Shown here piece by piece: positions 3,066-64,000 of a DNA stretch of 64,000 bases. A program made the translations under genes and the position numbers. Within the stretch, counting starts at the first letter, position 1. Every line of letters begins with the position of its first letter. The notes beneath the pieces were generated by a model. It did not search any database and was not told where the DNA came from. It saw only the letters and a program-made list of their open reading frames with translations. Location: the NCBI RefSeq assembly GCF_003991155.1, contig NZ_CP031294.1; one strand, given 5' to 3'. This DNA comes from Escherichia coli. Lineage in GTDB: Bacteria; Pseudomonadota; Gammaproteobacteria; Enterobacterales; Enterobacteriaceae.

Positions 3066-3110
3066 GTTTTCTTATCCTTTTAAACAAATTGTTTTCTTAA
3101 TAAGATAATT

Positions 3111-3156: not shown

Positions 3157-3987
3157 TTATTTCACTGTAATGAAAGGAGTGTTAGCCCCTTGAGTCATGT
3201 ACTGCGGTAACTGGCCATTCCATTTATTGATGGCTTCCAGTTCCATAACGTTCGGGTTTTGACGCAGAGCTTCACCGCGCAGACGAATGGCGTCCGCTTC
3301 TGCTTGCGCACGAGCACGGATAGCATCAGCTTCACCATTAGCCTGTTCACGTAGCATATTCGCCTCAGCTTTACGTTGTTCAACTTCCTGCTGACGTTGC
3401 AGAGTACGCTGGTTAGCCGTTACTTTGGCGTTAATAGATTCAATGACAGTTTTTGGGTAATCAGGCTTTCCAACCCATGACAGGCTCAGTACCTCAATAC
3501 CAACCGGAGACATCTCTTTCTGAATATCTTTCAGTGCGTTGTCCAGCAATTGTGCCTTACCACCGTCGATAAATGAGTCAGTGGTCATACGGCTGGCCAA
3601 ACGGTTTAGAGAGTCGGCAATTTTCTGACGCAGATCTGATTCGGTGATATCGTCTACGCCTTTGCGATAGGTCTGGAACACCGTCGTTACCTTGTCACGA
3701 TTAACCAGATACGCAACGCCAATTTTGTGACCAATAGCAGTACCGTCACTCATCTGGAATGTGAACGGCTCGTCGTAGGTCTTCATTTGTTTGAAGGTCG
3801 GGAATACGTAAAGTTCGGTGTTAAGACCTGTCCATTGGCGACCAACGCCAACCACTTCACCAATCCCTTTGTCTTCACCTAATTTGTTTACTTTGATGCC
3901 AACGTATCCAGGCTCCACGCGATCGCAGCCAGTAAGACCCATTGTGCAAATAGCCGCCAGAGCAACTGCAAGTAAACCTTTCTTCAT
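3157..3987 (-). CDS. SPFH/band-7 (HflK/YqiK-like) lipoprotein
   Basis: Signal peptide with lipobox LTGC; C-terminal Ala/Glu/Arg/Gln-rich coiled region typical of the SPFH family. Confidence 0.55.
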   Translation of the reverse strand: MKKGLLAVALAAICTMGLTGCDRVEPGYVGIKVNKLGEDKGIGEVVGVGRQWTGLNTELYVFPTFKQMKTYDEPFTFQMSDGTAIGHKIGVAYLVNRDKVTTVFQTYRKGVDDITESDLRQKIADSLNRLASRMTTDSFIDGGKAQLLDNALKDIQKEMSPVGIEVLSLSWVGKPDYPKTVIESINAKVTANQRTLQRQQEVEQRKAEANMLREQANGEADAIRARAQAEADAIRLRGEALRQNPNVMELEAINKWNGQLPQYMTQGANTPFITVK

Positions 3988-3990
3988 TAC

Positions 3991-4191
3991 TTATTTCCCC
4001 TTTGCTTTGATTAATGAGTTGATAAACTTACGACCAGCAATAAGACCGATTACAGGAGCACCAAAACCAACGATAACTCCAAACATGACGGCTAAATCAC
4101 TCTTGGTAGAAATCAGCGACGGAACCAGTAAACCGTAGATGAGAGCCACTGAAAGGCCTGTGGCTACTGCCAATAGATAGATTTTGATCAT
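3991..4191 (-). CDS. Small integral membrane protein (possible NfeD-like partner of the SPFH protein)
   Basis: 66 aa with two hydrophobic helices; stop lies 4 nt before the SPFH start. Confidence 0.4.
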   Translation of the reverse strand: MIKIYLLAVATGLSVALIYGLLVPSLISTKSDLAVMFGVIVGFGAPVIGLIAGRKFINSLIKAKGK

Positions 4192-16400: not shown

Positions 16401-16498
16401 GGCTAATCCTTTGTTATGAAAACAAATTATTTACTAGTGTGTTTAATGTAGCACTGCGCGAACAGGGAACTAAGCCATTCGCGCAGGGAGAAGAGGGG

Positions 16499-27946: not shown

Positions 27947-29191
27947 TGCTGCAATGCCTTTCACCTTGCTTAAGAGTTCAAGCTGTCGTGAGTAAGGTTT
28001 TGCGCAATAGTAGGCTTTGATAATCTGCCCCGGGGTCGCATCGCCGGGGTCGAGTCCTTCCTCGCCCAAACATGCAATTTTCACATTAAGACCAATACTG
28101 CTCAGTCGCCTGGCTGCGGCCATAGTGTTGCGTATAGCTTGCTTTTCACTATCCCACATCATGATCACATTACGTAACCCACGCGCCTTGAGCGTCAGGA
28201 ACGCGCCTAACTGATCTTCTGCATCCTGAGTGGTGTTACCAGATAGATGCATCCCGAACGTTCCTATTGGTTCCACGTAATCACGTAATGTTTCTTCGTC
28301 AAAAATAGCTCGTTTAACCCCCATAACATCGAACGCCCCCTCACAGACAACTACAGTCTGTTTGCCGACTGCATTATGGCCGTTGTAGAGAAACTTACCT
28401 GAAGCTGGAAGCTGCATAGGAAAGAGGTAGCGGCGTTCTGCTGTACCGGTAATGTCTCGTCCCTGAAATGTCTTCATTACCCCATCCAGATCGTAAACCG
28501 GTATCAGTATTCGCATATCGAATATCTGCCCTTTTACCTGATCTGTATACGGATCTACATAAGCGTGCTTGCCTTCGACGCAGTATCGTAGGTCAAAATA
28601 CTTTGCCATTTCAGGTGATATGTTTCGTTCAACCAGATAGTCTGGAAGACGGCCATCTATAGGAAGCTCGTAATGACGAGGGAGTGCAACTGGCCCCTCT
28701 AACTCGACTGTGCTTGCAAGCACTAGCTCTTCTTTCTTTGGTGCCCACCCCTGGGAAAGAAGGGCGTTCTGCACATATTCCTCGAACTGTCGTCGTGATT
28801 TGCCGCTGTAGTGCTTGAGGAAGACCAGCTTATTGAACTGAATCTCTTCGGGATGATCACCAGCGAAGCATTTACCGACGCCACTGGTCAGATTGAAATA
28901 TACCTTCCAGTTGGAGCTGCCGCATACCGGACACTCTTTGATATTCACTTCACGACCGCGAGCACTCACACCTCCACGTCGATAAACGATACCTTCAGTA
29001 TCCAACCATTGTTCAAAATCTAATTCGGCAATTAGCTCTTTCAGCTCGCTCACGATAATTCCACTTTTAACAGGCAATATTGTGACCAACCTAAATGTTG
29101 ATATAACATAAAGGCTCATGTGTTTTTCTTTTGTGGTTTGGCAAAAGAAAAGTTGTTTCACCAATGAATCAAGCGTGGAGGTGTTCTCCAC
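27938..29191 (-). CDS. DNA primase (zinc-ribbon + TOPRIM, T7 gp4-primase-like)
   Basis: Zn-ribbon CPVCGSS...GKCF, TOPRIM-like VVVCEGAFD and acidic MWDSEK. Confidence 0.7.
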   Translation of the reverse strand: MENTSTLDSLVKQLFFCQTTKEKHMSLYVISTFRLVTILPVKSGIIVSELKELIAELDFEQWLDTEGIVYRRGGVSARGREVNIKECPVCGSSNWKVYFNLTSGVGKCFAGDHPEEIQFNKLVFLKHYSGKSRRQFEEYVQNALLSQGWAPKKEELVLASTVELEGPVALPRHYELPIDGRLPDYLVERNISPEMAKYFDLRYCVEGKHAYVDPYTDQVKGQIFDMRILIPVYDLDGVMKTFQGRDITGTAERRYLFPMQLPASGKFLYNGHNAVGKQTVVVCEGAFDVMGVKRAIFDEETLRDYVEPIGTFGMHLSGNTTQDAEDQLGAFLTLKARGLRNVIMMWDSEKQAIRNTMAAARRLSSIGLNVKIACLGEEGLDPGDATPGQIIKAYYCAKPYSRQLELLSKVKGIAALV

Positions 29192-29200
29192 GCTTATTTT

Positions 29201-30541
29201 TTAGGTAACGTCTAAGATTCGCTCAATGAAGCGCATTTGTTCGAGGTTTTGTTTAACGCGAATGCTGATCCCTCCCTGCTGGTTACGCGAACCAGCAAAG
29301 TAGAGACGAGCCTCTCCTTTCGCTTCTTCTTCTTCGGTTTTGTTGATCGTTATTACCAGGTCAGCAATACGTACTTTTTCGATGTTGTCGGCAGCGTGCA
29401 TCATTGTGGCAACTTCTGACGCGCCACCTTCACGGTTTGTTTGCGATGCTGTGATACCAGCAACGTTGTGTTTGTCATAAAGAGCACGTAAATCGGTGTA
29501 GATACTACGAATGTTGGCGCGATCATCACGAAGGTCATAACTGGCACGCATCAAATCTGCGTAGTCGACAACAAGCATGTCAGGCACCATGCCATTGGCT
29601 TTCATGCTGTTAAGCATACGGTCCAGATCTGCCGGTGACATACTTCCTGACGGACGCTCAACAACCCACAAACTACCAATCCCCTTAGTGGCTCCCAACT
29701 CTGCCAACTTACGATGAACTTCATCGCGCCGTTCCACCAGCTTGGACATTTCCGTCTCCGACAATCTTGCATCAAAGCGGTCGGACAAAATGTTGGTGTG
29801 AACCTCCAGCGAGAGATACAGAACATTGTAGCCAGCAAGCGTTGCGTTTATGGAAAACTCACCCATTGCGGTCGATTTACCGGATTTAGCGAACCCCATG
29901 AAAAGCACCATTTCGCGCTTTGCCCAGCCTTTTTGGTACAGCAACCTATCGAGAAGAGGGAGTCCTGTTGTAATACTGTTTGGTACATACTCCTCTGAAG
30001 CCTCATATTCACGCGCTTTCAATCGCTCACTTGCGGAGGTGTAGTAGTCATAGATTCCGGTCGCTTCGTTCGATCCAATCTGCTGAACCTTGGCCATGAT
30101 TGCCATCGCCCCCTGAAAGTCGCCTTTCTCTTTCAGTTCAGCAGCCTTAATCAGAGCATCATCAAACGCTACGCTTTTTGCGAAGGTTGATACCTGGTCA
30201 ACCATGTACGAGGTATCGGACAATTTTTCTGCAAGGATGCGCTTAAACGCAGCAACAACATCGGCGAATAGTTCCTCACGGATAGTCTTATCGCGTTTCG
30301 CACGCTTAAGCATATCCAGAATTGCAGATGAAGAGGGCGCGCTCTTGTACATACGGTAATAGCCCGAAACCATATTAACCAATATGGCATTGGCCGCATT
30401 GGCAAATTGGCTAGGCACAACCAGATCTCCCGCACGAGTAAGAAACTCGTGATCACGACAAAAATATGCCGTCAGTCTGTTCTGGAAATCTTCATCAAAC
30501 TCTTCGGACAGCCCGCGTCCTGTATGGCAAAGTTCGGTCAT
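29201..30541 (-). CDS. Replicative DNA helicase (DnaB-like)
   Basis: Walker A GFAKSGKST, Walker B LVVDYADLM, RecA-like C-terminal domain. Confidence 0.75.
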   Translation of the reverse strand: MTELCHTGRGLSEEFDEDFQNRLTAYFCRDHEFLTRAGDLVVPSQFANAANAILVNMVSGYYRMYKSAPSSSAILDMLKRAKRDKTIREELFADVVAAFKRILAEKLSDTSYMVDQVSTFAKSVAFDDALIKAAELKEKGDFQGAMAIMAKVQQIGSNEATGIYDYYTSASERLKAREYEASEEYVPNSITTGLPLLDRLLYQKGWAKREMVLFMGFAKSGKSTAMGEFSINATLAGYNVLYLSLEVHTNILSDRFDARLSETEMSKLVERRDEVHRKLAELGATKGIGSLWVVERPSGSMSPADLDRMLNSMKANGMVPDMLVVDYADLMRASYDLRDDRANIRSIYTDLRALYDKHNVAGITASQTNREGGASEVATMMHAADNIEKVRIADLVITINKTEEEEAKGEARLYFAGSRNQQGGISIRVKQNLEQMRFIERILDVT

Positions 30542-30584
30542 GTGCTTTCCTTTGTTTTTTAAACAAATTGTTTTCTAGTATTAG

Positions 30585-34277: not shown

Positions 34278-34453
34278 TGGAGAGTTCCCTTTGCGTATAT
34301 AATTATCGTCTGAAACAACTTGTTTTCTTATATGTGATATAGCCTAAATGCCTACGGCTGTGGTGTAAAGGTTAAATGGTAGGTGCTGCCTTAGAATTTT
34401 TAGGCGAGAATTAATGGCTGTTAACAAAAAAGGCGACCAAAGTCGCCTGATTT

Positions 34454-63830: not shown

Positions 63831-64000
63831 AGATCCCTCTAAAACACACAGAGCGCGTCCATGCGCTCTAAAACAACTTGTTTACTGCATCTGCTAACCA
63901 ACTTGTTTTCTGGGGTGTTTAATTAGGTCTGGCATGTCTTACGAAGCCTGCTTCCGTATATATTTAATAAGTTACTTATTATTTATATATACAGATGCAG

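Follow-up and report, generated by a model that had tools for sequence, protein, structure and literature searches.

Control of replication genes by antisense RNAs that act through a leader is well known from plasmid countertranscripts such as CopA, which acts on CopT-tap-repA of R1, and Inc RNA, which acts on repY-repZ of IncI/IncB plasmids. In phage lambda, the 77-nt antisense OOP RNA lies between cII and the replication gene O and carries an intrinsic terminator at its end; over tens of nucleotides OOP is antisense to the cII coding sequence, whose cleavage it brings about. In the rpsU-dnaG-rpoD operon of E. coli, an internal terminator upstream of dnaG lowers the amount of primase relative to the upstream genes. 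Here we describe a locus that shares features with each of these systems, namely the 147-nt spacer between a DnaB-like replicative helicase gene and a DNA primase gene in a 64,000-nt stretch of Escherichia coli contig NZ_CP031294.1 (assembly GCF_003991155.1; in the following "the window", to which all positions and strands refer). This spacer contains a terminator-like hairpin facing against both genes, which we propose as the end of a candidate cis-antisense RNA; whilst the kind of system is familiar, this candidate member appears to be undescribed.

The window belongs to an SSU5/pHCM2-like phage-plasmid: across the junction region its identity is 97.8% with Escherichia phage Cyrano and about 80% with Salmonella phage SSU5, and in the E. 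coli plasmid NZ_OW849379.1 a 2.8-kb stretch adjoining the junction is identical, with the same coordinates. The junction is matched by 760 plasmid records, and the spacer has been left blank in all records examined. For comparison we collected 8 annotated plasmids and phages together with 80 IMG/VR contigs, which gave 47 distinct spacers, 46 of them of the SSU5 type. The features of the locus are as follows:

27938-29053, minus strand: DNA primase gene with annotated GTG start at 29053, the presumed regulated gene (annotation of the identical plasmid record and of phages Cyrano and SSU5)
29080-29109, plus strand: candidate sigma-70 promoter from a position-weight scan, with -35 TTGTGA at 29080-29085 and -10 TAACAT at 29104-29109 (18-nt spacer)
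29102-29107, plus strand: alternative -10 of the same candidate promoter, TATAAC (16-nt spacer; same scan)
29116-29202, plus strand: predicted cis-antisense RNA of about 87 nt, with an inferred 5' end (+/- 3 nt) and a 3' end within the T-run
29117-29141, minus strand: leader translation-initiation region CCACAAAAGAAAAACAC-ATG (ATG 29119-29117; second ATG 29109-29107), recognised by a shared start motif
29123-29152, plus strand: 5' stem-loop of the predicted RNA, TTTTTCTTTTG / loop TGGTTTGG / CAAAAGAAAA, a conserved AU-rich inverted repeat
29157-29168, plus strand: candidate small middle hairpin TTCA-ccaa-TGAA, weak in the lineage of the window and found at the same place in relatives
29171-29195, plus strand: terminator hairpin, 10-bp stem AAGCGTGGAG/CTCCACGCTT with loop GTGTT (from the sequence, a terminator scan and the spacers of 46 relatives)
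29196-29202, plus strand: A followed by six T (ATTTTTT; the six T at 29197-29202), the U-tail of the terminator
29201-30541, minus strand: DnaB-like replicative helicase gene (same annotation sources as for primase)

Comparison with CopA and Inc RNA reveals a common plan: a short RNA (about 60-100 nt) from an opposite-strand promoter, here a predicted one, within the leader that precedes a replication gene; a 5' stem-loop able to form a kissing contact with a complementary mRNA loop, followed by an intrinsic terminator; and a target, here likewise predicted, that ends at the start region of a leader frame of about 20 codons, the stop of which overlaps the start of the downstream gene. Unlike in those systems, the downstream gene encodes primase and not an initiator (Rep), with repA annotated elsewhere, at 1-1056, some lineages have the leader frame joined in frame to primase while a few lack it, and the candidate RNA is known here from sequence alone. 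Like OOP, the predicted RNA would be a small, terminator-ended antisense transcript that runs counter to the early/replication operon in which it lies, in a temperate phage, and whose 3' end reaches the end of the upstream gene; unlike OOP, it overlaps only the stop codon of that gene (helicase), its complementary region is the leader of the downstream gene, and there is no detectable homology. The hairpin itself resembles canonical Rho-independent terminators in its G+C-rich stem of 8-10 bp, its short loop and the 6-U run immediately downstream on the plus strand, but differs from them by facing against both neighbouring genes and, in the K. pneumoniae and Cronobacter lineages, by unusually large loops of 13-14 nt. 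As in the rpsU-dnaG-rpoD operon, a hairpin directly precedes the primase gene, with low primase as the plausible purpose; the rpsU-dnaG-rpoD terminator acts on the sense strand, however, whereas here the antisense side carries the U-tract and the sense side has a poor tail.

A search of Rfam gave no match at the gathering score: the best antisense family was ctRNA_p42d, on the other strand (14.9 bits, E = 4.4), and generic plus-strand small RNA families matched below threshold (MicC, 25.7 bits with a gathering score of 90; STnc390, 20.3 bits with a gathering score of 50). The searchable literature describes no RNA at this locus.

The terminator-like hairpin and its strand

The initial annotation had placed a hairpin with a following T-run at the junction of two minus-strand genes, and the sequence is exactly as it was described there: the core AGCGTGGAG-GTGTT-CTCCACGCT occupies 29172-29194, one further A-T pair at each end extends it to 29171-29195, and the T-run reaches into the complement of TAA, the helicase stop codon (29201-29203). 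With 10-11 pairs, six of them G-C, and a loop of 3-5 nt (core stem -13.7 kcal/mol), the hairpin has the G+C-rich stem of at least 5 bp and the short loop expected of an intrinsic terminator, and the ATTTTTT directly 3' of it on the plus strand supplies the U-tract. A consensus scan of 22-38 kb ranked the hairpin second among the terminator-like sites (plus strand, 11 pairs, 6 G-C, loop 3), and the palindrome is present in a single copy in the window, with a chance expectation of 0.02 at up to 3 mismatches.

A G+C-rich hairpin follows directly after the helicase gene in all 46 distinct SSU5-type spacers, and on the gene strand an A-run precedes it. The sequence of the stem varies with the lineage:

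E. coli lineage: GCGTGGAG/CTCCACGC
Enterobacter lineage: GGCGTGGAGA/TCTCCACGCC
K. pneumoniae lineage: GGCGTGGGGC/GCCCCACGCC, 14-nt loop
Cronobacter lineage: GGCGTGG/CCACGCC, 13-nt loop
K. oxytoca / K. quasipneumoniae lineage: GGCGTTCC/GGAACGCC

In order to compare the two strands, we calculated the d'Aubenton-Carafa T-tail score on both, with the core stem set by a strand-symmetric rule. The plus strand scored higher than the minus strand in every one of the 46 spacers (mean 3.68 vs 1.52), which bears out the earlier proposal that the element is oriented to end plus-strand transcription. On the sense side the score was 0.3-0.5 in the Enterobacter and Cronobacter types, and a moderate level (about 2.4) was confined to the E. 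coli and K. oxytoca types; with a sense-side mean of 1.52, the U-rich tracts on both sides that characterise a bidirectional terminator were not found. In the Cronobacter type the hairpin and the helicase stop codon are about 8 nt further apart and the A/T-run nevertheless still adjoins the hairpin, so that the run belongs to the hairpin and not to the stop codon. Taken with the strand bias of the T-tail, this means that the plus-strand terminator architecture, established here by sequence and comparison, is a selected feature of the family and no accident of the window sequence.

The stem has also changed in a manner that preserves it: in the covariance-model alignment described below, both sides have changed in 9 of the 10 terminator-stem pairs and 97.1% of the cells are paired. 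The suggestion that the element might be the remnant of an inserted cassette does not agree with this, for although the spacer is lineage-specific, it is maintained within its lineage with compensatory changes in those 9 of 10 pairs. We thus hold it very probable, on comparative grounds, that hairpin and T-run constitute a selected plus-strand Rho-independent terminator. Two other identities were considered and rejected: a dispersed repeat (REP/MITE-like), given the single copy in the window and the one strong covariance-model match per genome, and a neutral remnant, given that the single-copy element evolves with compensatory changes.

Two further observations concern hairpins of this kind. 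The hairpin AGGCGACCAAAGTCGCCT at 34431-34448 has T-runs on both sides, is terminator-like on both strands and looks genuinely bidirectional. An 11-nt perfect inverted match, ACACCTCCACG (28968-28978) with CGTGGAGGTGT (29174-29184), connects primase codons of about 25-29 with the 5' arm and loop of the terminator and could permit long-range mRNA pairing of the spacer hairpin with the primase coding region; it is probably due to chance, since Enterobacter-type sequences do not share it.

A candidate antisense promoter

About 800 nt around each spacer were searched on both strands with a sigma-70 position-weight scan. In 42 of the 46 spacers the top-scoring site lies on the plus strand at the same aligned position. 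Most lineages (SSU5, Enterobacter, Klebsiella and Cronobacter types) carry TTGATA, TTGAAA or TTGATT-16-TACCAT, with a score of 11.1; the K. oxytoca group has TTGCAT-16-TAATAT, and the E. coli type of the window has TTGTGA-18-TAACAT with a score of 8.6, some E. coli-type variants exhibiting a perfect TATAAT and a score of 13.1. Within the window, a score of at least 11.1 is expected by chance once per 12.8 kb of strand and a score of at least 8.6 once per 1.25 kb: the promoter-like site is therefore significant in most lineages, and that of the window is unremarkable. When ten representatives of the lineages were compared, the majority fraction was 0.97 for the -10 hexamer, which is the most conserved element of the spacer, 0.85 for the -35 hexamer and 0.74 for the 16 nt between them, and the hexamers are kept where the open reading frame of the leader is truncated or absent. 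An independent scanner applied to 1 kb of SSU5 reported this site as the only promoter-like one, 60 nt upstream of the same-strand terminator; the two form the only such pair in that 1 kb.

Fold and strand of the predicted RNA

A start about 7 nt past the -10 hexamer gives a predicted RNA of 85-99 nt in every lineage. For the window, the 87-nt RNA has a predicted folding energy of -29.8 kcal/mol (z = -5.4), and its layout of one to two stem-loops plus terminator, with a conserved fold, is that of a countertranscript. The arms of the 5' stem-loop form an AU-rich inverted repeat (29124-29133 / 29142-29151); its single-sided changes are all from U-A to U-G on the plus-strand RNA, alongside one compensatory change to or from C-G, and a G-U pair is possible in the plus-strand RNA only in 30 cells, as against none for the minus-strand RNA only. 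The candidate middle hairpin has a counterpart in most lineages, with the stems TCTC/GAGA, CTTCTC/GAGAAG, AATTTC/GAAATT and AATC/GATT in relatives and none in the K. pneumoniae type.

A covariance model built from 15 sequences gave one strong match per SSU5-like genome, always antisense at the helicase-primase junction, the match in the window being 29116-29203 on the plus strand with 92 bits. The model recovered the K. pneumoniae types, which lie outside the training set, with 47-52 bits and the Cronobacter types with only about 19 bits, and had no match in the Xenorhabdus, Morganella, Aeromonas, Ectothiorhodospira and Halomonas relatives. Pairs were counted in the covariance-model alignment and not in MAFFT columns (MAFFT shifted the K. 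oxytoca-type terminator by 2 columns). Standard pairs were found in 97.3% of the cells, with changes on both sides in 10 of 21 pairs, 9 of these among the 10 pairs of the terminator stem; none of 500 shuffles reached these pairing and covariation values, and sliding the partners by 1-3 columns reduced pairing to 54-67%. The same columns read as minus-strand (gene-strand) RNA were 88.2% paired. Over all pairs, G-U pairing is possible in the plus-strand RNA only in 44 cells and in the minus-strand RNA only in 4, and in most lineages the fold of the plus-strand RNA has a higher stability than that of its complement. The variation within the stems thus leans clearly toward the plus-strand RNA as the folded molecule, as far as comparison of sequences can indicate it.

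The conserved terminator, the promoter-like site upstream of it and the plus-strand fold together argue for a discrete cis-antisense RNA of about 87 nt as the best reading of the locus, and we rate it as somewhat probable that the hairpin ends such a dedicated RNA between the helicase and primase genes. Several points weigh against this. The promoter of the window is weak (8.6), barely above unrelated sites, and was not listed by the independent scanner; since the complement of the -10 hexamer contains the second leader ATG (ATGGTA/ATGTTA), conservation of this hexamer could partly reflect a start codon. A common Enterobacter variant carries an A-C mismatch within the terminator stem on the plus-strand RNA, the alignment used for counting pairs was fitted to the structure and hence somewhat favours it, and the G-U asymmetry represents few independent events on a G/T-rich strand within this same structure-fitted alignment. 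The one RNA-seq paper found for such a near-identical element, that on LF82/Cyrano, gives gene-level counts. At the leader, no frame is present in two lineages (L090 and L087) and K. oxytoca has only a far overlap: as the leader frame is not universal, coupling as in CopA/tap cannot hold in every lineage.

The leader start region and the proposed action on primase

The 5' end of the predicted RNA is complementary to AAAACACATGAG, a 12-mer that occurs 5 times in the window at up to 1 mismatch, always on the gene strand, against 0.49 expected. These sites, together with further sites found by duplex energy, are annotated gene starts: 2584, 4191 and 7659 (hypothetical), 12780 (dnaE), 14196 (AAA ATPase) and 30541 (helicase). 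The six genes have in common an extended start region of about 20 nt, roughly AACCACAAAGGAAAAACAC-ATG-A, which is also found at ATG 29119 (all on the minus strand), and for this reason ATG 29119 is very probably a real translation start. As the motif is far longer than a Shine-Dalgarno sequence needs to be, it suggests common translational control of the replication module, with either a protein or an RNA as the agent.

ATG 29119 of the window shares the reading frame of primase, and the frame of ATG 29109 stops at a GTGA that overlaps the annotated GTG start. An ATG-initiated leader frame that stops near the primase start, runs in frame into primase, or does both was found in 43 of the 46 spacers: the stop lies within -5 to +14 nt of the primase start in 36 spacers, and an in-frame run into primase occurs in 35. 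A conserved leader peptide was rejected as the cause of spacer conservation: the first ATG is ACG in L084/Buttiauxella, and the L090 and K. oxytoca types have a frame of just 5-6 codons and Cronobacter a different one, yet the hexamers persist.

The mechanism that we propose would proceed as follows. A sigma-70-type promoter at 29080-29109 would start the RNA at about 29116, which would form, in order, the long 5' stem-loop rich in AU, the small hairpin in the middle and the hairpin of the terminator, and end in the U-run at about 29202. Helicase and primase are apparently co-transcribed on the opposite strand, so that the RNA would be perfectly complementary to their mRNA from the helicase stop codon through the leader start (Shine-Dalgarno-like AAAGA and ATG 29119); the complement of the 5' stem-loop on the gene strand includes the Shine-Dalgarno-like part of this start region. 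Pairing would probably begin as a loop-loop contact of UGGUUUGG in the 5' stem-loop with CCAAACCA, would occlude the leader start and could create an RNase III substrate. The outcome would be a lowered synthesis of primase relative to helicase, as in plasmid countertranscripts (CopA on tap-repA). Start-region complementarity and promoter-like hexamers can be read directly from the sequences and their comparison, as can the conserved fold; from these we infer that the promoter fires, that the RNA accumulates and that primase is repressed. These steps differ in likelihood: repression of primase through the leader by the predicted RNA we put forward only tentatively, and the balance tips slightly towards an antisense transcription unit in the helicase-primase spacer that could restrain primase as the best explanation of the locus as a whole.

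The shared start motif also raises the idea of an action in trans, in which the RNA would serve as an "anti-start-region" brake on the replication-module genes that share the motif of about 20 nt; candidate targets may be helicase (30541), dnaE (12780), the AAA ATPase (14196) and the small or unknown genes at 2584, 4191 and 7659. The 5' 34 nt of the RNA pair at -25 kcal/mol or below with exactly 6 of 37 annotated start regions, all others being at -20.3 kcal/mol or weaker, while dinucleotide shuffles of the RNA (n = 200) gave a mean of 0.01 sites at this level. This specificity follows automatically, since the RNA is antisense to one member of a family of shared start regions. In the Cronobacter type, the 5' part of the RNA has diverged with the helicase start region unchanged, and the duplex of its own pair is weak, at -13 to -19 kcal/mol. 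Conservation of a trans regulon thus finds no support, and we regard the trans brake as improbable, a regulon within individual lineages being possible.

Alternative explanations

If the conserved terminator had no dedicated RNA, it could act as an insulator that halts antisense transcripts before the helicase gene and the upstream promoter region of the operon, the sources of these transcripts being accessory genes in convergent orientation, of which the TPR gene at 26801-27946 is one, or spurious promoters inside primase. The conserved orientation of the terminator is what this would predict, both the window and SSU5 have a convergent plus-strand gene abutting the 3' end of primase with no other strong plus-strand terminator between this gene and 29171, and the weakness of the promoter candidate in the window points the same way. 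However, the cassette is equally conserved where no plus-strand gene is present (Cyrano, K. oxytoca pCAV1099-111), the TPR gene is found in only a subset of E. coli-type plasmids, and both the conserved 5' stem-loop with its plus-specific G-U pairs and the fixed-spacing -35/-10 hexamers would be left unexplained. We consider an insulator without its own RNA unlikely. The initial annotation, in proposing that the element stops antisense read-through, was hence right as to the direction of transcription and incomplete as to its source: the element is kept with or without a convergent plus-strand gene downstream of primase, and a conserved promoter-like site and stem-loop just upstream on the plus strand suggest a dedicated small antisense transcript rather than a mere backstop. 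Should no such RNA exist, the element would be a well-conserved antisense insulator, which is ordinary.

The functional molecule could also be the sense (minus-strand) mRNA, with the hairpin past the helicase stop serving as a 3' stabiliser, a processing site or a weak attenuator; as an attenuator poor in U-tract it would set the helicase:primase ratio. In many lineages the sense RNA does form the hairpin just as well, the minus strand is highly structured over the entire spacer (z = -4.8), the second hairpin in its sense form would hide the Shine-Dalgarno sequence of the leader, and the E. coli and K. oxytoca types have the moderately U-rich sense-side tail (score about 2.4) noted above. Against these stand the poor and variable sense tail overall (mean 1.52; 0.3-0.5 in Enterobacter and Cronobacter), the invariant A-run on the sense side, which would have no explanation, the preference of stem variation for plus-strand pairing (97.3% vs 88.2%) and two A-C mismatches in the sense form of the SSU5 5' stem-loop, so that a sense-strand function appears a little less likely again than insulation. 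A signal at the level of DNA, that is single-stranded hairpins as a loading site for primase or helicase, part of a lytic origin or a palindromic protein-binding site, would suit a position between two replication genes and several conserved hairpins in about 90 nt, and multi-hairpin complementary-strand origins of G4-type phages and plasmid ssi sites resemble the hairpins of the spacer. A search for origin features at the junction found neither iterons nor direct repeats within the spacer and no switch of GC skew in its vicinity, the asymmetry of G-U vs A-C and the strand-specific T-run are expected of RNA and not of duplex or hairpin DNA, and sequence-specific protein binding is disfavoured by the freedom of the stem sequence to change; a DNA signal is thus the least credible of these explanations, and a highly improbable one.

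Origin and distribution of the cassette

In Ectothiorhodospira (L098, about 3790-3802) and in one metagenome-assembled genome (L102, about 404-422), the helicase stop overlaps the primase start (ATGA) without any spacer, and this translationally coupled order is likely to be the ancestral state, from before the SSU5-type cassette became inserted. Xenorhabdus (L094-L097, L101) and Morganella (L096) have an unrelated spacer with a conserved TGACTCCCGATC in the first 30 nt or so after the helicase stop, in which neither a promoter- or terminator-like site nor a covariance-model match was found. As the junctions of distant relatives are spacer-less or unrelated, the cassette was acquired within the SSU5-like lineage of Enterobacteriaceae; among sequenced phages it is confined to this lineage (11 records with one copy each).

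Phage-plasmids must switch between low-copy plasmid maintenance and lytic replication, and on how the helicase/primase/polymerase module of these elements is restrained the searchable literature offers nothing. Those of the SSU5/pHCM2-like kind occur very commonly in clinical Escherichia, Klebsiella, Enterobacter and Salmonella, and the literature names them as carriers of resistance genes (PMC9600943). If correct, a conserved antisense RNA at the primase leader would represent a concrete and easily testable control point and a useful annotation for the hitherto blank spacer: unsurprising in kind, the finding provides a candidate regulator in a phage-plasmid family that is clinically widespread and little studied.

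Two of the sampled sequences deserve separate mention. Contig L093 (JAEWTL010000041.1), labelled "MAG: Bacillota bacterium", has an Enterobacter-type SSU5-like junction with the same antisense cassette and a helicase 93% identical to that of the window, and is probably mis-binned. The Aeromonas caviae plasmid NZ_CP068233.1 (L010) has its own Hfq gene at 3817-4140, directly upstream of helicase; the presence of an Hfq gene on an Aeromonas phage-plasmid is suggestive of RNA-based regulation in this group of elements.

Other features of the window

Three further features of the window lie outside the spacer:

26801-27946, plus strand: Sel1/TPR-repeat gene with a secreted-looking product, overlapping the 3' end of primase by 9 nt
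21565-21808, minus strand: three consecutive tRNA genes (Rfam tRNA; 76.5, 75.5 and 39.7 bits)
3082-3096, 16418-16432, 30561-30575, 34313-34327 and 63869-63910: sites of the palindrome GAAAACAAnTTGTTT

Only part of the E. coli-type elements have the TPR gene (most of the region is found in 49 of 189 matching records); it is absent in Cyrano, and SSU5 has a different gene, SSU5_041, in its place, which makes this position a variable slot for accessory genes. With up to 1 mismatch allowed, the window has 7 copies of the palindrome GAAAACAAnTTGTTT, against 0.05 expected. Each site lies 15-40 nt upstream of a gene start and one copy directly precedes the helicase-primase pair: the palindrome has the look of an operator, or of a promoter motif specific to the element, by which transcription units are defined.

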